Below are positions 3,730 through 55,428 of a DNA stretch of 64,000 nucleotides, in pieces. Position numbers and translations under genes: made by a program. The DNA comes from Syntrophorhabdales bacterium. Its GTDB lineage: Bacteria > Desulfobacterota > Syntrophorhabdia > Syntrophorhabdales > WCHB1-27. The stretch is taken from positions 14,202 through 78,201 of the forward strand of contig DATFYE010000113.1 in NCBI GenBank assembly GCA_035315185.1. The letters are read 5' to 3'. Every line of letters starts with the position of its first letter. The stretch's first letter is position 1. The notes beneath the pieces were generated by a model that saw only the letters and a program-made list of their open reading frames with translations, made no database searches and was not told the origin of the DNA.

Positions 3730-4257
3730 TCAGCTATTCTTTCCAATCTGCGTGTACTTTTTTTCAAATTCCAGAGGCTTGAATCCTATCCTTATCTGCT
3801 TACCAGATTTTGCTTGTATTATATGGCTGCATATAACATCTTTGATGACCCATTCGGAAATGTTCGCGTTATCAATACATGCACCGCTTAGGTTTGCCTT
3901 TGTTAAATCTGTCTTTATGAGAATAGAGGCAGTTAAGGTAGCGTCAGTGAGATCGGCTCCGCTGAGATCGGCATCGCTGAGATCGGCTCCAATGAGATCG
4001 GCTGCAAAGAGATCGACTATAGTGAGCTTGGCTGCAATGAGGTTGGCTCCAATGAGGTTGGCTCCGCTGAGATCGGCATCGCTGAGGTCGGCATCGCTGA
4101 GGTCAGCATCGCTGAGGTCAGCTGCAATGAGGTTGGCTCCAATGAGGTTGGCTCCCCCGAGCTTGGCTCCGCTGAGGTTCCATCCTTTTTTTGGCATTTC
4201 CCCTGCAACGACGGCCAAATGAACAAGCCTCGCCCAAGTTTGCTCTCTTGTCATCAT
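3730..4257 (-). CDS. Pentapeptide-repeat protein
   Basis: Long A(D/N)LxG/ADLSD runs (ANLIGANLIAADLSDADLSDADLSDADLSGANL). The DNA shows a 15-bp periodicity at about 3940-4150. Confidence 0.9.
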   Translation of the reverse strand: MMTREQTWARLVHLAVVAGEMPKKGWNLSGAKLGGANLIGANLIAADLSDADLSDADLSDADLSGANLIGANLIAAKLTIVDLFAADLIGADLSDADLSGADLTDATLTASILIKTDLTKANLSGACIDNANISEWVIKDVICSHIIQAKSGKQIRIGFKPLEFEKKYTQIGKNS

Positions 4258-19553: not shown

Positions 19554-20264
19554 TTAAAAGCCCTTCCGTTTGAGCCTGGCATAGAATGTGTCGGAGGTAT
19601 AAATAGCGGCCAAAGGATTGTGCCCCAGCAGCCTGTCCTTAACCGCAAGGACCGTCGTGGGTGCGTGCGCATATTTGAAAAACAGAGCGTCGTGCCCTAC
19701 GCAGAGCCCGAGCATCACGTTAAGATCCGTCGCGGCTTCGTTGACAAGCATGGCCTGATAGATGGGGTTGCACATTGGCTCGTATTCTCCGATCCGTATC
19801 TTCTGGTGCTCTTTCACGTCGATCTCTTCCTTTGGTACTGAGCCGGCCTTACAGACCACGGACACAACTTCAAATCCCTGCGCCTCAAATATCTGCGCCA
19901 CGACTGCCGCCTCCCTGCTCAGGCCTATACACGAAATAACCCCGAGCCGGGTATACTTCATTTTGGAGGCGAACTCACAAATCTCCTGAATCCTCGGTTT
20001 GCTGGGATGCATCATGAAAGGTTTCTTCTCCCTGTTCAGGTAGCATTCACCTTCTTGAATAGATGCCTGCCTTGCGAACTCTGCGATGCCTTTCTTATGA
20101 TACTCTTTTCGAGCCTTCTCCTGAAGTTTCCTGTTGCTTACGGTTGGACATCCCTTTGAACTCTTCCCTTCGGGAGAAAGGCAGACTCGCTCTCTCACCG
20201 GCAACGAGCACTCCGCGCACTGCGGCACCCGGTTCTTTGACATGCGTTCACCTCCGCGTTTCAT
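19554..20264 (-). CDS. DUF1847-like metal-binding protein
   Basis: Cys-rich N-terminus (CAECSL..RVC....GCP) and LGLCVGHDALFFKY, as recalled for DUF1847. The start may be M8 at 20243. Confidence 0.55.
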   Translation of the reverse strand: MKRGGERMSKNRVPQCAECSLPVRERVCLSPEGKSSKGCPTVSNRKLQEKARKEYHKKGIAEFARQASIQEGECYLNREKKPFMMHPSKPRIQEICEFASKMKYTRLGVISCIGLSREAAVVAQIFEAQGFEVVSVVCKAGSVPKEEIDVKEHQKIRIGEYEPMCNPIYQAMLVNEAATDLNVMLGLCVGHDALFFKYAHAPTTVLAVKDRLLGHNPLAAIYTSDTFYARLKRKGF

Positions 20265-38228: not shown

Positions 38229-38626
38229 TTCTCTTTGCTATCTCTGGCCTTTGTGTAAATAATTCTGTAACGCTCCCTGTCAACATCGAAACACGCTGTA
38301 CAGCCTCTTTCTTCACAATCCGCACTTTTCATCTCCTCCTCTGTGGGCAGGGGCTCCAGGAGCACATCGAACCCTATAGACTCATAAAGCTCGACCGCCT
38401 CCTGTAGCCTCGGCTCCGTCGCAATAAACCTTCTCTCCCAGCCCTCCGTAACGAGTTCTTCCTCTCTTTTCGTCACAGCCCCACAGTATACACAATTGCA
38501 CGGGGGCGCCTCAAGGACAGAAGCCGATCGCTGCGCTTGAGGATCGCCGATAAGCCGGCTTAAGGACCGGGCCGGTAGCCCTCGAGGAGCGGCTTTCAGC
38601 CTTGAGGTAACTGCCTTCAGCCTCAA
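38225..38626 (-). CDS. Cys-containing hypothetical protein (N-terminal extent uncertain)
   Basis: The conserved-looking part is CNCVYCG...GWERRFIATEPRLQEAVELYESIGFDV...CTACFD. The annotated N-terminal ~35 codons run through the hairpin-repeat cluster and may not be coding. Confidence 0.45.
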   Translation of the reverse strand: MRLKAVTSRLKAAPRGLPARSLSRLIGDPQAQRSASVLEAPPCNCVYCGAVTKREEELVTEGWERRFIATEPRLQEAVELYESIGFDVLLEPLPTEEEMKSADCEERGCTACFDVDRERYRIIYTKARDSKEN

Positions 38627-38712
38627 GTCGCAGGATGCGACGCTCCTTGAGGAAACGAAGTTTCCGCTCCTTAAGGCTCATCAGAGCCGGTCCTCAAGCG
38701 AAGCGCTCGGTT
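38529..38712. repeat. Hairpin-rich CTYRAGG repeat cluster, copy R1
   Basis: Multiple CTTGAGG/CTCGAGG/CTTAAGG/CCTCAAG motifs plus the perfect hairpin GGAAACGAAGTTTCC (38651-38665). It shares exact 15-nt (CGCTGCGCTTGAGGA) and 17-nt (AGGAAACGAAGTTTCCG) strings with 42297-42497. Confidence 0.7.
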
Positions 38713-38834
38713 CAGAACGATTTTATCTGCCCCCCCTAAAGTTTACCGCATATTCCTCCGAAAATAGACAGGACAGTAAATACAACTGACAACGTTTCAT
38801 CTACGGACAACACAAAAGAAGAGGGGGATTCCAC

Positions 38835-39044
38835 GTGACAAGCGGTAGCAGCGTGCATATTGAAGCTAGTGGTAGCCTGATTGCTAATCCGCCCGGACGT
38901 GCCGCCCATAAGGAAAGGGCTCATGGTTCGGCAGCTCTCAGTTTCGGCACGGACCTTTCTTTAATTGCACTGCTCGCTCGAGCAGGACTTCTATCACCTC
39001 TCGTCTTCCGAGTCTGGTGTTACGTGCGACCGTTCCTGCAGTGA
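38835..39044 (+). CDS. Candidate 69-aa ORF translationally coupled to the S24/S26-like peptidase
   Basis: GTG start 7 nt after a GAGGGGGA RBS. The stop TGA (39042-39044) overlaps the ATG (39044) of the peptidase gene. The C-terminal segment is hydrophobic. Confidence 0.3.
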   Translation: MTSGSSVHIEASGSLIANPPGRAAHKERAHGSAALSFGTDLSLIALLARAGLLSPLVFRVWCYVRPFLQ

Positions 39045-39445
39045 TGGGACAGGCACAGCTCACCTACGTAACCTATACGGGTTCCAGTATGGAACCTATC
39101 CTCAAACCCGGAGATCTCCTCCAGGTTCTCGCTTACTCAGGCAGCCCAGTCAGGCGCGGGGATGTTATTTTCTATTCATGTCCCTCAAAGAGCTGCAACG
39201 TCGTGCACCGCGTGACAGATTTTGATACTCGCGGAATCAGGACAAGGGGAGACAGCAATGCACGTATTGACCCGTGGGTTGTAAGCCCTAAGCAGGTCGT
39301 CGGGTACGTTGCGCATGCGCAACGCGGCTGTCGATGGCGGCTAATCTCAGGTGGGCTCGTGGGGCACTTTGTGGCAAACCTCCTGCACGCTGTTAAGCAT
39401 TTCAGCCTCTTCTTCTCAGGCGCACTCTATCCTCTCTATCGTTGA
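39044..39445 (+). CDS. S24/S26-family (signal-peptidase-I-like) serine peptidase, copy 1
   Basis: GSSMEPILKPGDLL...RRGDVIFY...VVHRV...TRGDSN..D.. The GTG at 39017 is an alternative start. Confidence 0.7.
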   Translation: MGQAQLTYVTYTGSSMEPILKPGDLLQVLAYSGSPVRRGDVIFYSCPSKSCNVVHRVTDFDTRGIRTRGDSNARIDPWVVSPKQVVGYVAHAQRGCRWRLISGGLVGHFVANLLHAVKHFSLFFSGALYPLYR

Positions 39446-40621
39446 ATTACATAGGCCACTCCTGCCGTGCGGGAAGATGCTCTTCCTCTGTGCCTCTTCA
39501 CAGTACCAGAAGCCTGCCCAGAGATTTTTGCTCCGGTAATAGTTCTGAGCCACGCAACTCCCCAGGCAGATGCTTTTCATCAGGCAGTCGCCGCAGATAC
39601 CTTCAAACCGATGGGGCAGGCCGTCGCGCAGCTCGTTGAGCACGGATGAATCACGCCAGACGTCTTCCAGCCGGTCCGTCGACGCATGGCCGAAAACGAG
39701 CTCAGGTACGCTCTCCCCGATCCCACAGAGCGCGTATGAACCATTGGCGAGCACGCCCAAGATACCCAGAATCCCGCAGACACCGCAGCCCTGCTGCTCG
39801 CCGAACATCTTGCTCATAGGCTTGAAGGCAGCAGGGTGGCTGTAGAAGAGTTTCAGGTGTGTGGACGCAGAGAGTGTTTTTTCGACCCACGCACCCAGCT
39901 CCACCAGTTCATCGATGGTGAGGGCTTCTCCCTGCTCGTGCATCTTCTCCCCTCTGGCGGTGGGCTGCACAAGGTTGAACTTAACAGAGCCCGCGCCCAC
40001 GGATTCTGCAAGGCGCACCACAGCCCCCATCTGGTCTTTGTTGCGACGTACGATGCTCATGATCACCTGCGGTCTGAAACCTGCAGACACGAGATTTTGG
40101 ATGCCCTGGAGTGCCGCCTCAAATGAACCGTTCACACCGCGCATCCACTCGTGGGTCGCAGCATCCGCCCCATCGATACTGACGGAGACGAATGTGTTCT
40201 TGCAGGACTTCAGTTCCTGAGCCAGCTCGGGTGTGCAGAGGACTCCATTCGTTTCGACCGTGAGTCCCAAATCTTCTCTTCGCACAATACCCAGTAGCTC
40301 CCGTATGTGCGGGTGCAGCAGCGGCTCACCACCCGTCAGCTTCACACCGGTAAGGCCAAGAAGCTTCGCCTGCTTAATAATCGACTCGAAGAGATCCACA
40401 GGGAGCGCCGGGTAGCTCTTTCCTCCTCCCTGGAATTTCGGCGCTATCCAGCAGTGACGGCAGGCAAGGTTGCAACCTTCGGTGAGATAGAAATAGATGC
40501 AGTTGAGATGGTACCGAACTGCACAGACGTCGGAAGTAACCTGTTGAATTGGTTCGATTCGTTCAGCGAGTTCGATTGGTTCGATTGGTTTCATTGGCTC
40601 GATTAGTTCGGCTGGTCTCAT
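39416..40621 (-). CDS. Radical SAM/SPASM-domain peptide-maturase-like enzyme
   Basis: CNLACRHCW (CX3CX2C). C-terminal SPASM Cys clusters (GCGVCG...YALCG...ICGDCLMKSICLGSC). The N-terminal (E-P-I)n tail is encoded by the 9-bp repeat tract. Confidence 0.85.
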   Translation of the reverse strand: MRPAELIEPMKPIEPIELAERIEPIQQVTSDVCAVRYHLNCIYFYLTEGCNLACRHCWIAPKFQGGGKSYPALPVDLFESIIKQAKLLGLTGVKLTGGEPLLHPHIRELLGIVRREDLGLTVETNGVLCTPELAQELKSCKNTFVSVSIDGADAATHEWMRGVNGSFEAALQGIQNLVSAGFRPQVIMSIVRRNKDQMGAVVRLAESVGAGSVKFNLVQPTARGEKMHEQGEALTIDELVELGAWVEKTLSASTHLKLFYSHPAAFKPMSKMFGEQQGCGVCGILGILGVLANGSYALCGIGESVPELVFGHASTDRLEDVWRDSSVLNELRDGLPHRFEGICGDCLMKSICLGSCVAQNYYRSKNLWAGFWYCEEAQRKSIFPHGRSGLCNSTIERIECA

Positions 40622-40626
40622 TGGTT
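40546..40626. repeat. Tandem 9-bp-periodic tract (ATTGGTTNN x9), left flank of the four-helix-bundle gene
   Basis: gaattggtt cgattcgtt cagcgagtt cgattggtt cgattggtt tcattggct cgattagtt cggctggtc tcattggtt. Confidence 0.8.
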
Positions 40627-41016
40627 CCCCTTCGAATCTTGATTCAATTTTGATGTCTTGTTGAGATACGGAATAAAGTTATTGACCTTCTTCCAGGCAA
40701 GATTGGCCTGCTCTGTCACTTCGCTCATCTCGGGTTCATCTACGTATTTCTGGTCCAGCGCAACACAACAGTGGCTCACCGTTTCAACAATGGAAGCCCG
40801 AGAATAATCCAGAAACTTCATAAACTCTCTCGTGCTAGCACGATGGAAGCCCTCTGCTATGTTGGCCATGGCCGATACCGCGCTTCGTTTAATCTGTCCA
40901 ACAAGCTCATAGTCCGTTCTAAATCGGTCATTTCTTGTAATCCCATATATCAGCCTCACAAACTTCCTTGCATCCTTCCAGCACTCCAAATCCTCAAATC
41001 GTCTTGCGGTCGCCAT
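40618..41016 (-). CDS. Four-helix-bundle protein (23S rRNA intervening-sequence protein / Avd-like family)
   Basis: MATARRFEDLECWKDARKFVRLIY...QIKRSAVSAMANIAEGF.R.S..EF..FL.YSRAS..E is the classic signature of this family. Start reassigned to M14. Confidence 0.8.
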   Translation of the reverse strand: MATARRFEDLECWKDARKFVRLIYGITRNDRFRTDYELVGQIKRSAVSAMANIAEGFHRASTREFMKFLDYSRASIVETVSHCCVALDQKYVDEPEMSEVTEQANLAWKKVNNFIPYLNKTSKLNQDSKGNQ

Positions 41017-41042
41017 CGGCCAGCCTTTACCATCTCCGCTCT

Positions 41043-41105
41043 TCGACCACCCCAACCAACTGAACCAATAGAACTAATTCAACCAATCAAACTAACGGAA
41101 CCAGT
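41043..41105. repeat. 9-bp-periodic tract in inverted orientation (NNAACCAAT x~7), right flank of the four-helix-bundle gene
   Basis: ccaaccaac tgaaccaat agaactaat tcaaccaat caaactaac ggaaccagt. Confidence 0.75.
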
Positions 41106-41113
41106 CTCGATTT

Positions 41114-42229
41114 TTACGCGCAGCATGCGCAGTTGACCGCCGCCGGCAGTCTTCCCCCTTCTCCCAGGAACTTCCTGAGACAGGCATCCGGCGCAGGATG
41201 GTAGACGCTGCCGGTGATCGTGTAAGCCAGAGCAGGGCAGCTGCCCGTGCAGTAGTTCATGTACGCGCAGTCCTCGCAGAACTCAAAGCTGGAGAGCGGG
41301 ATGGTGCGGCGCTCTCTGAGCCGGTTCAACTCGGGGTGGTTTTGCCAGATATCGCGGAGATCATTCTGGTTTATGCGGCCCAGCACCATATGAGGTATTT
41401 GAGCACAAGGCACGATGGCCCCGTCAGCACGCACCGCGATCTGGTTCATGGGTCCACCGCAGCCGGTAAGAAAGCCGCGGCCCGACATCTCGCGCCCTTC
41501 CTTACGCGCCTGCTCCATTTCCAGCCATCCCCTTCCTTCGGCCAGAGGGCCGGCCGCCGCACTGATCCGGCCGTTATACTTGGCGGTCAGTCGCAGCAGT
41601 GTTTCCATGGCCAGGAACCGTTCCTCGGCTGTGAGCTGGACTATCTCGGCATTCTTCCGACAGAGGCCGAGGTGGGACGCGGAATTGGTGGAAAAACCCG
41701 ACAGACCGACTTCTTCGAGCAGGAGGCGCGAGACGTTCTCAAGGTCACGCACGTTCTTGCGATGGATCGTCACCCGCACCGTGACCGGCAGGTTGTAGCG
41801 CTGGAGGTGCTTTATACCATTCATGGCTTTCCGGAAGCTGCCCCTGCCCCGGCAGGCATCATGGGTTATCGGTACGGAGCCGTCAATTGAGACCTGGACA
41901 CTGTCGCACCGCTTCGTCGACGCGAGAAATGCTGCCATATCGTCAGTGATTAACGTGCCGTTGCTCAGGATCTTGAATCGCATGCGATTACGGACGATGC
42001 CTCCTATGAGTTCTTTCAGATCTTCCCGGATGAAAGGCTCACCGCCACACAGTGTCACATCCATGACAGCACAGCGGCCCAACTCCTCGAAAAAGGTGAG
42101 CCATGCCTCAGTGGGAAGGTCGGTCCCCACATCGCCCGCGCTCGAGAAATGGCTGCAGTACTTGCAGCGGAGGTTGCACCGGTCGGTTATGTCAATGTCC
42201 ATCGATTTCGGGGTTCTCATCAGCTGCAT
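41114..42229 (-). CDS. Radical SAM/SPASM-domain peptide-maturase-like enzyme
   Basis: DRCNLRCKYC (CX3CX2C). SPASM region GCGGPMNQIAVRADGAIVPC...FCEDCAYMNYCTGSC. GGAGG RBS. Confidence 0.85.
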   Translation of the reverse strand: MQLMRTPKSMDIDITDRCNLRCKYCSHFSSAGDVGTDLPTEAWLTFFEELGRCAVMDVTLCGGEPFIREDLKELIGGIVRNRMRFKILSNGTLITDDMAAFLASTKRCDSVQVSIDGSVPITHDACRGRGSFRKAMNGIKHLQRYNLPVTVRVTIHRKNVRDLENVSRLLLEEVGLSGFSTNSASHLGLCRKNAEIVQLTAEERFLAMETLLRLTAKYNGRISAAAGPLAEGRGWLEMEQARKEGREMSGRGFLTGCGGPMNQIAVRADGAIVPCAQIPHMVLGRINQNDLRDIWQNHPELNRLRERRTIPLSSFEFCEDCAYMNYCTGSCPALAYTITGSVYHPAPDACLRKFLGEGGRLPAAVNCACCA

Positions 42230-42296
42230 AGTTTACCTCCGTGAAATGAGACCGCAGTGCTTGATTGGGGACCGCCGGCAGAGCCGGCTCGAGGAG

Positions 42297-42497
42297 CGCT
42301 GCGCTTGAGGACTACTTCTTTTGAGGATAGACTAATCACTTCAGCATTCATTCGCATCTCCCAAAAATACCCATTTATGTGCTTCACTCTCTTGCCTCAA
42401 GCCGCCGAAGGCAGCGGCCCTCAAGGGAGCACGGCTCCCGATCCTGAAGGCCTTCTCGAGGCCGCTCCTCAAGGAAACGAAGTTTCCGGTCTTTGCA
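42297..42497. repeat. Hairpin-rich CTYRAGG repeat cluster, copy R2
   Basis: Same motif family and the same two exact strings as R1, in the same order. Hairpin GGAAACGAAGTTTCC at 42473-42487. Confidence 0.7.
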
Positions 42498-42589
42498 CCG
42501 CCTGCCGCCTTTAGTGCCTCTTTGCAATCACCATACCAAGGGATAGTCACGCAGTAAGTGGCACAGCACGTGCATGGTATGAAAGGATT

Positions 42590-44461
42590 ATGAGGACATG
42601 GCTCTCTTATGTCAAGCAAGCGTTTTCAAGGGAAATACCTGCTGATGAAATATCAAGCGCGGAAGAGCTACCTACCGATATCCGGCGCAACCTGAGGCAT
42701 ATCTATCCCTTTATCCGCCGTCATTGGCAAAAAGGCCTCCTCGGCGCCGGATTGATTTTCGTGGGGACACTGCTTAGTTTTCCGCAACCCCTTATCTCCC
42801 GGTATCTCGTTGATACGGTCATCGGGGGGCGCCGGCTCAATCTCCTGGCCGGGGTAATTCTCCTCATGGTCGCCATTTCGGGATGCTCAAAACTCTGCGG
42901 CCTCCTGCAGCAATTCTACGTCGCCCGCTTTGAGCAGATGGTTACCATGGATATACAGGAGAGCCTGCTCGGCCACGTCCTGCGTCTTCCCAAGGCCTTT
43001 TTCGATAGTAAGGAGACAGGGTACCTCATGTCGCGGATATCTTCCGACGTGGGCGGTCTCCAGTGGTTCTTCTCCAGCACCATCGTGCACATCGTCACCA
43101 ATGTTCTGAGATTCGCGGGCGGGATCTGGTTCCTGGTTTACCTGGAATGGCGGCTTGCCGTGGCAGCGGTTATCGTCCTGCCGGGACTCGTCTTCATGAT
43201 CCGTTATTTTTCTGGTAGATTGCGTGTCATGAGCCATTGGCTCATGGAACAGCACGCCCAGGTTCACAGCCGCTTTCAGGAATGTCTGTCGTCGGTGCCG
43301 CTCATCAAGGCCTTCTCCACAGAAGATCGGGAGGTGTCCACCGTTGTTTCGGGCATGCGAAGAATCGTCAATCTTTCACTCGAACAGTCGACCGTGAACT
43401 CGATCGCAGGCCTGGCCATAGGCTCCATGCCCAGCGTGGTGAATCTTTCGGTCCTGGTGATCGGCGCCTATTGGGTGATAACCGGCCACTGGACCCTCGG
43501 CTCGCTCTTTGCCTTTCAAGGTTACCTCGGGTACGTGTTCGGCCCGGCCCAGTTCCTTGCTTCGGCCAATTTAGGGCTCCAGGGCGCCAGGGCATCGCTG
43601 GAGCGTGTCTCGGCCCTTTTCGACCTTGTCCCGGAGGAGAATACGGGCAAAGGCCTGATAATCGATCGTCTGCAAGGCGACATCGAGTTTCGGAACGTCT
43701 CCTTCTCCTATGATGCGCATAACCCTGTGCTTGAAAACGTTTCCTTTCGCGTCAGACAGGGAGAACGCGTGGCCATCGTGGGTCCCAGCGGAGTTGGTAA
43801 GACAACCCTGGTGAGCCTCCTCCTCCGGTTCTACCGGCCGACCTCGGGAGAAGTCTATCTCGACGGCATACCCGCCAGCGATATCGAGGTCAGGGCCCTA
43901 CGCCGGCGCATCGGTTACGTGTCACAGGGTACCTTACTCCTGTCGGGAACCGTTATGGAGAACTTACGGTATGGTAACCAGGAGGCGACGGATGAAGAAG
44001 TCATACAGGCTGCAGAGGCCGCGAACATTCATGACTTTATCGTGAGCCTCCCGGAAGGTTACGACACGGAGATCGGACAAAACGGAGTCAGTCTCTCCGA
44101 GGGGCAGCGTCAGCGCCTCTCCATCGCGCGAGCACTGATCAAGCGTCCCGATATCCTGGTTCTTGACGAGCCCTCATCCGCGCTCGACAATCTGACTGAA
44201 AAATCGATATTCCGTTCATTGCCTTTTCTGGTGCGGAATAAGACCCTCTTTGTGGTGGCCCACCGGCTTTCCACGATTGAGGATTCGGATCGGATCCTGC
44301 TCCTGAACGAATGCCGTCTCGTCGCCGTCGGTACCCATCAGTCGCTCCTGGAGGCGAATGCTTACTACAGGTCGCTCTACGGGAACCAACAAGGGGGCAT
44401 CAGGAGCGCGGACCTTGAAGAGCGGGCTCCGCGCTTGAAGACCATCAACCCCCTGGGTTGA
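42590..44461 (+). CDS. ABC exporter, fused permease/ATPase (MsbA-type), with no C39 peptidase domain
   Basis: Six-TM N-terminal half. Walker A GPSGVGKTT, signature LSEGQRQRL, Walker B ILVLDEPSSALD. Confidence 0.9.
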   Translation: MRTWLSYVKQAFSREIPADEISSAEELPTDIRRNLRHIYPFIRRHWQKGLLGAGLIFVGTLLSFPQPLISRYLVDTVIGGRRLNLLAGVILLMVAISGCSKLCGLLQQFYVARFEQMVTMDIQESLLGHVLRLPKAFFDSKETGYLMSRISSDVGGLQWFFSSTIVHIVTNVLRFAGGIWFLVYLEWRLAVAAVIVLPGLVFMIRYFSGRLRVMSHWLMEQHAQVHSRFQECLSSVPLIKAFSTEDREVSTVVSGMRRIVNLSLEQSTVNSIAGLAIGSMPSVVNLSVLVIGAYWVITGHWTLGSLFAFQGYLGYVFGPAQFLASANLGLQGARASLERVSALFDLVPEENTGKGLIIDRLQGDIEFRNVSFSYDAHNPVLENVSFRVRQGERVAIVGPSGVGKTTLVSLLLRFYRPTSGEVYLDGIPASDIEVRALRRRIGYVSQGTLLLSGTVMENLRYGNQEATDEEVIQAAEAANIHDFIVSLPEGYDTEIGQNGVSLSEGQRQRLSIARALIKRPDILVLDEPSSALDNLTEKSIFRSLPFLVRNKTLFVVAHRLSTIEDSDRILLLNECRLVAVGTHQSLLEANAYYRSLYGNQQGGIRSADLEERAPRLKTINPLG

Positions 44462-44478
44462 GGTGAAAGGACTGTTGG

Positions 44479-44523
44479 ATTAGTTTGATTAGTGTCATTC
44501 GTTTAATTGGTTATATTGTTCGA
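44479..44523. repeat. Third 9-bp-periodic ATTNGTTNN tract
   Basis: attagtttg attagtgtc attcgttta attggttat attgttcga, starting 18 nt after the ABC exporter stop. Confidence 0.6.
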
Positions 44524-44615
44524 AAAGTTCTACGTCGGCCAGACCTCGTCTGCAAACAACTGGGCGGATACCCCTTGCGTGGCATGCGCCCAGTTGGGTT
44601 TTCTGCATTACCGAA

Positions 44616-53463: not shown

Positions 53464-55428
53464 CTATTCCTGTAAAAGCTTATGCAATAAGTCTACAACT
53501 TTCCCGCTCTTATCGAACCTGAGCACATAGCAGGGAACCTCTCGCGCTATACCGCCGATCAGCGGTAATGTTTTTTCCCACCAATCGACCGTGACAAGAG
53601 GTCTAATTAAGCAACTCAACAGCCTCCTGGTAATGTCTTTCTTATTCTTTAATAGTATAAGCCGGTTCTGTTCTGATTTTTCCAGAAACATAACCGCTTT
53701 TAGAAACGCGGAGCTCGCCGATATATCCGGCACGTCGCCGTTGCTCCAGGTGCCGTAGATCTTAACGCCCTCGGGGCGCTGGCGCACAATTATCCTGTCA
53801 TCGCAGAGGATTTCGGCTTTGCCTTGTAACATAGTTGCCATGGTGGATTTGCCCGCCTCGGGATGTCCTGCGAAAAGCAGCCCTTTACCTCCAAAATTCA
53901 CGCCGCAGGAATGCAAGAAGCAGCCTTGCCTGTCGGCTAAAATACGCGCCAGAAGAATCTGGTCAGTGGGAAAAAGTGTTAAAGAATGCAATCCGCCTTC
54001 CAGAAATGTCTCTTCCTTTTCGTTGTAAATCATCGCCCTCGTATGGCCGGAGTCAAAAACTGCCACCGTATGAAGGCTCTTATCCGTCCATTCCGGAGAG
54101 AGTCCCAGATATATCCAGGAATCATCCTTTTTGTAAATCGCCCAGGGCGGTTTTCGATAAACCTCCTTGCCTAAATTGTTGTCATCCAAATCCGGAAGCG
54201 AGAAATGGTGGCTTATAGCAATAATATCTTCACCAGGGTCTTTGACTTCAAATTTTTTGAATTTAGAATCAAAAGTATCTTCAGTTATGGGTAGATCAGA
54301 ATCAACCCGCACCGTAATATCAGCTATTCCATAGTAACGCCTATGCTTCCTTAGCCAATCTTCCTTAAACCTTTTAGTCTCCTTTGCTACAGCGCAAAGA
54401 TAATTCACTCTGGCGCCGAATCTGCGATGCTCTAAATAACCATAAGCAACGCACCAGCGGCAATGATTCTGTAGATCGCAAGATTCACAATTCTCCTTGT
54501 ATTCTTTTGTGGTTCTAACTCTTCTGGACAGGGAAGGGATAAACTCTTCCCAGCACTGTCTGAACGTTCCCTTTCTTAAATCATAGCGGAGTTGCGGATC
54601 TTTAATAAAGCAGCAAAATGTAGCCTTGCCGTAAGGGTCGATATGAAAATCGCGCCCTGCGGCCACGCAGGAGCTAAAAAAGTGGCTGCTATTCCCTCTA
54701 TAGCAATGTACATTCTTTTCTTCTTTGTCGAGCCAATCTTCATACGACAAATCGGGCTCATCAAGTTCCACCACCTGTTTGGGCGGAAGCCTTTGCCTGA
54801 GTATTTCCCGATTTATTCCCGGATCACCGGAGGAAGAAAGATAGAGCCATGGCGCGCCCACCCTGTAATGTTTGCTCAATGACTGGGCCAACTCAACCAT
54901 TTTGTTCCACTGATGGTAATTGTCCTTCATCGGGATAAGCTGGACCGTAAAGCCCGCCTCTGCGTCTTTCAGGTATCTAAGCCCCCCCATGGTGGCTTCA
55001 AAGGAACCGGGATTACGGGTGATATGGTCATGGACATCCGCGGTAGCTCCGCAGAGAGCGACCATCTTAGTTCCTTTTCGTTTCATCAGCCGCGCAATGT
55101 TAGGTGTAATCAGCGTGCCGTTAGTGTTAATGGAATACGATACGGAATGAGCCGTAATATAATCAAATATGTCGGTAAAATCGGGACGAAGCATCGGCTC
55201 ACCGCCGGATATGCTCCACCTTTGACAACCTAATTGCCTGGCGTTTTCCACTATAGTATTGATCTCCTCAATGGTAAGTTCGTCTTCTTTTTCTTTGGCA
55301 TCTGCTGGTATCCTGAGCCAGCAGTGTCTGCAGTTATTGTTACAGCGGTAGGTAAGGTCGATACTGCCGTTTAACGGGAGGCGCGGTGACGTATCGATTC
55401 TTTTAACGGTAAGGTAGGTTTGTTGCAT
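53464..55428 (-). CDS. Radical SAM/SPASM enzyme fused to a C-terminal HPr-kinase-like P-loop domain
   Basis: TYRCNNNCRHCW and NCESCDLQNHCRWC in the first ~350 aa. C-terminus: LHSCGVNFGGKGLLFAGHPEAGKSTMATML...ILCDDRIIV (HprK C-terminal-domain-like Walker A plus DD). Confidence 0.75.
   Translation of the reverse strand: MQQTYLTVKRIDTSPRLPLNGSIDLTYRCNNNCRHCWLRIPADAKEKEDELTIEEINTIVENARQLGCQRWSISGGEPMLRPDFTDIFDYITAHSVSYSINTNGTLITPNIARLMKRKGTKMVALCGATADVHDHITRNPGSFEATMGGLRYLKDAEAGFTVQLIPMKDNYHQWNKMVELAQSLSKHYRVGAPWLYLSSSGDPGINREILRQRLPPKQVVELDEPDLSYEDWLDKEEKNVHCYRGNSSHFFSSCVAAGRDFHIDPYGKATFCCFIKDPQLRYDLRKGTFRQCWEEFIPSLSRRVRTTKEYKENCESCDLQNHCRWCVAYGYLEHRRFGARVNYLCAVAKETKRFKEDWLRKHRRYYGIADITVRVDSDLPITEDTFDSKFKKFEVKDPGEDIIAISHHFSLPDLDDNNLGKEVYRKPPWAIYKKDDSWIYLGLSPEWTDKSLHTVAVFDSGHTRAMIYNEKEETFLEGGLHSLTLFPTDQILLARILADRQGCFLHSCGVNFGGKGLLFAGHPEAGKSTMATMLQGKAEILCDDRIIVRQRPEGVKIYGTWSNGDVPDISASSAFLKAVMFLEKSEQNRLILLKNKKDITRRLLSCLIRPLVTVDWWEKTLPLIGGIAREVPCYVLRFDKSGKVVDLLHKLLQE

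Follow-up and report, generated by a model that had tools for sequence, protein, structure and literature searches.

Between scmE and scmF, two genes of the SynChlorMet (SCM) cassette in a Syntrophorhabdales bacterium (contig DATFYE010000113.1), lies a compact insert at positions 40546-41106 of the 64,000-nucleotide stretch of DNA that we analysed as a whole and call the window. It carries a single gene for a four-helix-bundle (4HB) protein of the family known from intervening sequences (IVSs) of 23S rRNA genes, bracketed by two tandem arrays of a nine-base unit in opposite orientation. We read the insert, as the account that is probably correct though with ample room for doubt, as an IVS-type 4HB cassette in an mRNA operon, inserted at the scmE/scmF stop/start junction; the narrower claim that gene and arrays form a discrete mobile gene-plus-arrays cassette can be held with considerably greater confidence. 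All genes of the locus lie on the minus strand, where ScmE is followed by a GU-rich array, the 4HB gene, an AC-rich array and ScmF:

41114-42229, minus strand: scmE, upstream of the insert; TIGR04250 ScmE equivalog, 612.2 bits (cut-off 400); Pfam Radical_SAM and SPASM domains
41043-41106, minus strand: 5' arm, six to seven GU-rich nine-base units (counted by eye), on the mRNA strand ACUGGUUCC GUUAGUUUG AUUGGUUGA AUUAGUUCU AUUGGUUCA GUUGGUUGG
41017-41042, minus strand: spacer from the 5' arm to the 4HB start codon, with the purine-rich, putatively Shine-Dalgarno-like motifs GGAGA and AAAGG, as read from the sequence
40618-41016, minus strand: 4HB gene, 132 codons plus TGA; PF05635, TIGR02436; 23S rRNA IVS protein/Avd-like
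40546-40627, minus strand: 3' arm, about nine AC-rich nine-base units NNAACCAAU, found by Tandem Repeats Finder, as an inverted repeat, in folds and by pattern search
39416-40621, minus strand: scmF, downstream of the insert; TIGR04251 ScmF equivalog, 609.9 bits (cut-off 400) over residues 37-387; radical SAM/SPASM

All elements that an earlier note on this DNA had described were recovered at the same positions. The two co-oriented radical SAM maturase genes between which it had placed the insert are the ScmE and ScmF pair of a SynChlorMet cassette, both (612 and 610 bits) above the equivalog cut-off of 400. Its nine left-hand units correspond to an array at 40548-40627 (Tandem Repeats Finder, period 9, 8.9 copies, consensus ATTGGTTCG), and its roughly seven reverse-complement units on the right to the six or seven counted by eye at 41043-41106, within which Tandem Repeats Finder delimited 41054-41103 (period 9/18, consensus AACCAATTG). 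The 5' arm sets in 8 nt past the scmE stop codon, and the 3' arm contains the final 4HB codons, an ATGA stop/start overlap and codons 1-26 of ScmF. A three-unit pattern, TTRGTTNNRTTRGTTNNRTTRGTT, matched 11 times in the window with up to two mismatches, against 0.00 matches expected by chance, and all matches were confined to three places, namely the two arms and a solo array at 44480-44512. An assembly artefact was considered and rejected: the whole cassette stretch is present without any difference in an independent 10.4-kb contig from a soil metagenome run, which excludes a chimera. Rfam gave no family match in 38500-45000, even at E <= 1.

The 4HB protein matches PF05635 with 94.2 bits (cut-off 33.8) and TIGR02436 with 85.1 bits (cut-off 24), and its closest solved structure is 2GSC (XCC0516; E = 5.1e-13, residues 4-115), which bears out the earlier assignment to the 23S rRNA IVS/Avd family. 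It possesses both the FEDL N-terminus and the Q..(R)..S...NIAEG helix motif, and Q41, S48, N52, I53, E55 and G56 are invariant in a ten-member alignment across clades; a family motif GxxRxxxSxxxNxxE is recorded in PMC3936711. The 2GSC entry was deposited with five identical chains, and the protein is a homopentameric toroid according to PMC4990558. The predicted isoelectric point of the window's protein is 8.8. Ratios of nonsynonymous to synonymous substitution (dN/dS) of 0.04-0.21 were obtained among five 4HB orthologues linked to Scm cassettes, and by these measures of sequence evolution the gene is intact, under purifying selection and functional.

That the insert is a derived feature of the operon follows from its relatives. 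A scan of one genome per species yielded 37 ScmF loci, from Desulfobacterota, Aminicenantes, Verrucomicrobia, Lentisphaerota, Omnitrophica, Methanothrix and others, and in most of these genomes ScmE is followed directly by ScmF across a gap of 30-170 nt, without a 4HB gene or ATTGGTT units. Since most ScmE-ScmF pairs lack both gene and arrays, this comparison of genomes shows the insert at scmE/scmF to be derived, and the orthologous radical SAM pairs to which the earlier note had pointed are thus mostly free of insert and repeats alike. Seven metagenome contigs (L001-L007) carry the window-type cassette with 4HB proteins of 74-84% identity and the same inverted 9-mer arrays; in three of them (L004-L006) the cassette follows ScmC instead of ScmE while still adjoining ScmF, and both ScmC and PqqD are present. 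The two closest genomes display the sporadic presence typical of IVSs, as the gene is replaced in one and decayed in the other. Thus, L008, with ScmE and ScmF 92% identical to the window's, holds at the same junction another 4HB gene, only 28% identical, flanked by an inverted set of its own (TTGAGGACC upstream, GGTCCTCAA downstream) and running into ScmF through a TAATG stop/start overlap, and L009, with ScmE and ScmF 90% identical, keeps both arms and just the first 12 codons of the 4HB gene. In L022, from Victivallales, the ScmE-ScmF junction is occupied by yet another 4HB gene, the third, again between inverted flanks of its own. Because these three unrelated 4HB genes stand there in different lineages, the junction must have been hit at least three times.

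Several further observations concern the same junction. In L004 (838-934), and also in L005-L007, a truncated copy of the first ~19 4HB codons (MATIRRFEELECWQEERKK) and an extra block of repeat units precede the intact gene, which looks like recombination within arrays. DNA contigs from other samples hint at gene-less and L008-type variants; these pieces are short and only 85% alike, and we do not rely on them. The junction of a Brocadiaceae metagenome-assembled genome (MAG; L014, 2620-4708) holds, by eye only, apparent HEPN/nucleotidyltransferase and HicA/HicB pairs and no 4HB gene. Between ScmE and ScmF, L010 (4519-4734), L021 (5724-5951) and L043 (2898-3314) have small Gly/Cys/Ser-rich open reading frames (ORFs) with a KPVLI-type leader, which are candidates for Scm precursor peptides; to our knowledge, the text of the TIGRFAM family describes the Scm precursor as not identified. 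Finally, L030 appears to be a chimera of two cassette types and, coming from a noisy long-read MAG, was left uninterpreted.

The cassette has also left its mark on the gene downstream. The ScmF ORF runs from ATG 40621, which overlaps the 4HB stop as ATGA, and the left array is translated as MRPAELIEPMKPIEPIELAERIEPIQQ. Upstream of the ScmF CX3CX2C motif the only in-frame starts are ATG 40621 and ATG 40594, both within the 3' array, so that ScmF, if made, bears an array-encoded (E/K-P-I)n tail, with residues 1-27 coming from the array, before its conserved core, which begins at residue 37. Judged from the reading frame, the scmF start ATG is now supplied by the cassette, and the earlier proposal that the left tract had been co-opted as the ScmF N-terminus and as C-terminal 4HB codons stands. 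A purine-rich, Shine-Dalgarno-like stretch, GAAGGGGAA, is read just before the scmF ATG, and the same stop/start and array layout at scmF recurs in L001, L004 and L008. One could instead regard the (E-P-I)n stretch as a native disordered N-terminal tail of ScmF, with the upstream inverted copy a local duplication or a chance product and the 4HB gene merely lying between the two. A period of nine is a multiple of three and the array ORF is joined to ScmF, as such a tail would have it, but insert-free ScmF orthologues have short, non-repetitive N-termini, the same arrays flank 4HB genes in unrelated contexts such as L069, and the three-unit pattern is expected 0.00 times by chance. Moreover, since other clades have units of 7 and 8 bases, the nine-base period is no coding relic, and a coding origin for it was rejected. 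Contradicted on all these sides, the native-tail explanation is scarcely credible.

Evidence that the 4HB cassette moves as a unit came from further pairs of loci. The 4HB genes of L093 and L113 are 94% identical in DNA, with homology that runs through the arrays and ends there, the outer flanks being unrelated; the pairs L081b/L098 and L085/L095b (86-88% identical) show the same pattern. L080 and L081 are otherwise 98% identical, but in L081 a second 4HB gene is situated in the 3' array of the first. Furthermore, in a conserved Nostoc plasmid operon, the 4HB gene stands before a 288-nt gene in pNPUN02 of N. punctiforme and after it in pNsp_c of ATCC 53789. The empty junctions there read TAG-GTT-ATG and TAA-TTT-ATG, and the filled ones stop-[array-4HB-array]-ATG, the second with 35 extra bases before the ATG; for the window itself, no sufficiently close empty site was available for a comparison of boundaries. 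These alignments show, at the level of sequence, that gene and arrays travel together, and the insert-free orthologous pairs and the array-flanked family copies alike support the earlier suggestion of a discrete, possibly mobile insertion.

The contexts into which such genes are set are diverse. Of the genes next to a 4HB gene, about 78% share its orientation, and the neighbours are unrelated operon partners, including the pairs ABC-2 permease/ATPase, PriA/amidohydrolase, Polysacc_synt_2 dehydratase/DegT, HdrA-like protein/MvhD and cmr2/cmr3. PF05635-type genes inside cas operons have been recorded without explanation (PMC3936711). For 20 loci with poor neighbour calls, Rfam revealed no rRNA context and returned only a group II intron fragment in L067; this fragment (D1-D4, RF02005, 65.7 bits, 1-159 on the minus strand) lies directly upstream of the 4HB gene.

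With these contexts in hand, a domesticated role can be weighed, in which the 4HB gene would be an accessory of the Scm pathway (a scaffold, immunity or regulatory factor) that is kept because it is useful and not as a selfish element. In several Scm lineages the gene has stayed intact under purifying selection; its place is always immediately upstream of scmF, whether scmE or scmC precedes it, and it was acquired separately three times at one junction. However, most Scm cassettes do without it, L009 lost it and kept ScmE and ScmF, close homologues reside in ABC exporter, PriA, polysaccharide, Hdr/Mvh and cmr operons, and the junction also collects the apparent toxin-antitoxin modules seen by eye in L014. 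We consider domestication improbable.

To see how general the architecture of the window's cassette is, we drew on 80 metagenome loci whose 4HB genes share 41-79% identity with that of the window (81 non-redundant genes) and scored local alignments between the 150 nt upstream and the reverse complement of ~195 nt at or after the 3' end. Scores above the 95th percentile of 192 control windows of the same geometry were reached by 62% of the 81 genes, and 28% exceeded every control (Mann-Whitney p = 4e-11 for flanks against controls). Raw duplex energies of 140 x 180-nt flanks gave no discrimination (controls -65 +/- 24 kcal/mol), because the background varies with GC content, and local alignment scores were therefore used instead. 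The earlier note had asked whether other copies of the family carry such flanks, and comparable ones were found. Besides the inverted type there is a second class with strong direct repeats on both sides of the 4HB gene (L080, L092 and others), and in the Marinimicrobia locus L129 GT-rich arrays flank the gene on either side. In most loci a period of 9 dominates, while some have 7 (L083, L118) and others 8 (L096), and in a neighbour-joining protein tree period, unit sequence and mostly also orientation are congruent with clades.

The same holds in cultured strains: on finished plasmids of Nostoc, Aulosira, Calothrix, Picosynechococcus and Riemerella, the inverted flank arrays of all nine loci beat all 200 shuffles, at L125 narrowly (29 against a maximum of 27), with units that include GTCAGGA, GGGAAAA, GGGAACA, GGAGATAA and GGTTTAAG. 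Two side observations belong here. Two different 4HB genes, each with its own arrays, occur in tandem on the contigs L081, L087, L095, L115 and L124. In L054 (~1617-1800), array-encoded repeats (INLINQINEINEINQTNQIDQ) lie near the N-terminal end of the gene upstream of the 4HB gene, in its stop-to-stop frame, and arrays may thus also be embedded in coding sequence away from the cassette.

In the window, the long imperfect inverted repeat noticed earlier around the 4HB gene has arms of 62 nt (40556-40617 and 41045-41106) that are 73% complementary. When 40530-41125 was folded as a 596-nt minus-strand RNA, the arms paired in both the minimum-free-energy and the centroid structure and looped out the whole 4HB ORF, so that in the predicted folds the terminal inverted repeats form an enclosing stem as in an IVS. 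Joined through a GAAA loop, the arms alone gave -68.1 kcal/mol; 200 dinucleotide shuffles gave -45.0 +/- 3.9 (z = -5.9), and not one of them equalled the arms. The flanks thus pair when folded, as the earlier note had supposed.

The account that we favour runs as follows. The stretch 40546-41106 would be a self-contained cassette of the 23S rRNA IVS type that landed in an mRNA operon instead of an rRNA gene, its PF05635 gene standing between two arrays, oppositely oriented in this case, of a 9-nt unit specific to the clade, and its entry point the stop/start junction between scmE and scmF. Co-transcribed with the scm operon, its GU-rich and AC-rich arms would pair into the imperfect ~60-nt duplex of the predicted fold, with the 4HB ORF looped out. 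By analogy with rRNA IVS stems, RNase III might cut this duplex, which would release the 4HB message and separate the scmE and scmF messages from one another, and scmF translation would be coupled to 4HB termination through a restart at the stop/start overlap. Processing by RNase III, carried over from the rRNA case, is the step about which we are doubtful. As to co-transcription, a consensus scan placed one promoter-like site upstream of scmE:

42587-42615, minus strand: sigma-70-like hexamers TTGACA-17-CATAAT, 11 of 12 positions, upstream of scmE (consensus scan only)

Within the insert, no promoter-like or terminator-like site was found among consensus matches, and the promoter scan thus favours, if weakly, a single transcript for scmE, the 4HB gene and scmF. 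A search of RNA runs met the window's locus in none of them, and the runs listed for L076 contained nothing of that locus.

A number of observations weigh against this account, several of them against its RNA part. The complementarity of the arms is modest at 73%, and among arm mismatches in 40 inverted-type loci G·U (69) and A·C (78) are equally common, which leaves no sign of selection on pairing in the sense RNA; the majority of mismatches are transversions at variable positions of the unit. Sister clades have same-orientation arrays (AC/AC in L080 and L092, GT/GT in L129), and direct arrays form no stem, which rules the stem out as the role of the arrays across the family. As regards insertion, no target-site duplication was visible at the two Nostoc empty/filled junction pairs, and the ORFs scanned, which were the six closest to the insert and the ten longest within ~13 kb, included no transposase, integrase or reverse transcriptase; the 4HB gene is the sole ORF in the insert, which therefore has no transposase in cis. 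Lastly, selection for a role in the Scm pathway could also lie behind the three hits at a single junction.

From the variable orientation and the even mismatch counts we argue that the conserved feature of the family is an array of its own unit on each side of the gene, not a stem. This conserved layout, together with solo arrays, is why the arrays can be viewed as putative recognition sites, and it opens an alternative for the arms: they may be recognised, on DNA or on single strands, by the putatively pentameric 4HB protein or by the machinery that moves or copies the element, the stem in this clade being a by-product of orientation, in a two-part system like that of RAYT (REP-associated tyrosine transposase) and REP (repetitive extragenic palindromic) sequences, for which solo arrays elsewhere in a genome would be additional targets. 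The sequence and the period of the unit both change along with the protein clade, arrays can be inverted, direct AC/AC or direct GT/GT, the arms have no G·U bias, and the closest solved relative, 2GSC, has five chains and is a homopentameric toroid (PMC4990558). Arrays also exist away from any 4HB gene, as in the window itself:

44470-44515, plus strand: solo array of an ATTRGTTNN unit, ATTAGTTTG ATTAGTGTC ATTCGTTTA ATTGGTTAT; Tandem Repeats Finder 44474-44512, period 9

It lies ~10 nt past the stop of a divergently transcribed ABC exporter gene (42590-44461), with no 4HB gene adjoining, and could be either a remnant of another cassette or a free-standing target array. In L093 and L113, arrays of an AACSARAYM nonamer recur about every kilobase along both contigs, far past the 4HB gene, and a second array type (GAACATWG 8-mers) is also present in L080 and L113. 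The first 50 kb of pNPUN02 (L138) contain one solo GTCAGGA array and, at 19961-20135, an inverted pair of different heptamers (CAATTCG x4.7 and AATTGCG x3.9) ~115 nt apart with no gene between. This gene-less hairpin pair resembles those reported in Xanthomonas, where ~186 GGGAATC arrays, 70 of them in convergent pairs, were described with no link to a gene (PMC4692102). Against recognition stand the lack of any enzymatic motif known in PF05635 and the single solo array of the window. On balance we deem it rather unlikely as the explanation of the arms, and it is compatible with the cassette reading, in which only their role would change.

Extending the idea beyond the window, we tentatively propose, while expecting that it may well prove wrong, that 4HB proteins and 7-9-nt arrays constitute a widespread two-part system, RAYT/REP-like, in which each clade would recognise its own unit, the cassette would move into operon junctions and, as IVSs, into rRNA helices, and solo arrays would lie in intergenic regions. 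If true, this would give a common origin to the 23S rRNA IVS, to stand-alone 'S23p' genes (those scattered over operons of the cas, polysaccharide and other kinds) and to the unexplained arrays of heptamers and nonamers that lie between genes in cyanobacteria, xanthomonads, Beggiatoaceae and others.

Elsewhere in the window, three features deserve mention. A 480-aa minus-strand ORF (44616-46058) with a weak DUF3466 match contains long tandem repeats at 44995-45780 (periods of 129, 255 and 384 nt; 72-82% matches), and its product is a repetitive, probably surface-exposed protein. At 3948-4178 there is an array with a 15-nt period, ~15 copies and the consensus TGAGGTCGGCTCCAC, which also shows a 45-nt periodicity. 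A few kilobases from the Scm pair, the stretch 46975-55428 contains a further four radical SAM genes, of which one has B12-binding and TPR domains, and a PRMT-like methyltransferase, an arrangement that suggests a wider neighbourhood for peptide or cofactor modification.

Where rRNA intervening sequences come from and what their conserved ORF does have been open questions since the early 1990s, and we know of no function outside diversity-generating retroelements (DGRs) for PF05635, a large family with a solved structure. The present evidence makes the IVS a particular instance of a general cassette, in which a gene stands between two arrays of a short unit specific to its clade and which colonises operon stop/start junctions in Desulfobacterota, Cyanobacteria, Bacteroidota, Lentisphaerota, Marinimicrobia and others. 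The question can thereby be put to the test in strains that are cultured and tractable, among them Nostoc punctiforme and Picosynechococcus PCC 7003, and the link to the cassette may account for the abundant intergenic heptamer and nonamer arrays that were described without an associated protein. For annotation, it means that N- or C-terminal repeat 'tails' on adjoining genes can be read-through of an array, that 4HB genes in biosynthetic or cas operons are not necessarily members of those pathways, and that assemblies can break at array-rich flanks.

Among known systems, the nearest is the 23S rRNA IVS with an S23p/PF05635 ORF, described from Leptospira, Coxiella, Xanthomonas and Brucella (PMC4990558). 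The two share a PF05635 ORF of ~120-130 aa that reads in the same direction as the host transcript, inverted repeats folding into a long stem, a total length of ~430-560 nt and a sporadic distribution suggestive of horizontal transfer; the IVS stems are RNase III substrates, and the IVS ORF was once proposed as a mobility component (PMC4990558). In contrast, the window's insert is not within a 23S rRNA gene, at helix 9, 25 or 45, but between two protein-coding genes, at a stop/start junction of an mRNA operon. Instead of a near-perfect 28-bp stem it has arms of degenerate 9-nt tandem units (62 nt, 73% complementary), and its 3' arm belongs to the translated sequence of the gene that follows. 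Whereas IVS stems are cut by RNase III, that of the cassette is known here from sequence and predicted folds.

Avd, the accessory protein of DGRs, belongs to the same family, is likewise a basic four-helix bundle and is homologous to 2GSC (PMC10053308), and this Avd-like membership is what would make the 4HB gene the Avd of a decayed DGR. Unlike Avd, however, the gene stands alone with short-period arrays on both sides and no target gene evident nearby. No reverse transcriptase or RVT domain was detected among the ORFs scanned within ~13 kb, the neighbours are ScmE and ScmF, dozens of loci share the architecture with ordinary operon genes as their identified neighbours, and tblastn against 50,697 phage records gave no match. 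In a repeat search restricted to 40400-41300, no pair of template and variable repeats was seen. A DGR remnant, rejected on the ORF scans, the neighbours and the phage search, has next to no chance of being the answer.

The arrays themselves recall the intergenic short tandem repeats of 7-9 nt known as GGGAATC in Xanthomonas, GGGGA(C/T)T in Nostoc and TAACTGA in Beggiatoaceae, which also lie near start and stop codons, change copy number by whole units and, in Xanthomonas, often form convergent pairs (PMC4692102, PMC4679880). Unlike those, the arrays reported here bracket a PF05635 gene whose phylogeny the unit tracks; a text search of both papers met no mention of a protein gene between or beside arrays.

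In a REPtron, formed by REP sequences or REPINs and a RAYT, a single gene is flanked by inverted copies of a short repeat, and more copies are dispersed intergenically. The cassette resembles it in both respects, with its gene between inverted short-repeat sets and further repeat copies in intergenic regions. PF05635, however, is not a Y1 transposase and has no known catalytic activity, and the repeats are tandem arrays of 7-9-nt units instead of 20-40-nt palindromes. MITEs (miniature inverted-repeat transposable elements) and integron cassettes are comparable as small, discrete intergenic insertions with inverted ends and no transposase inside; in contrast to MITEs, the arms are tandem arrays, and no target-site duplication is visible at the two empty/filled junction pairs from Nostoc, and in contrast to integron cassettes, arrays are present at both ends instead of a single attC-type site, with no integrase among the ORFs scanned within ~13 kb.

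In the open-access literature, subscription journals being outside the scope of the search, no description was found of array-flanked stand-alone PF05635 genes or of a link between them and intergenic short tandem repeats. That one gene-plus-arrays unit recurs across unrelated operons in many bacteria suggests a mobile element of a kind that has received little notice.

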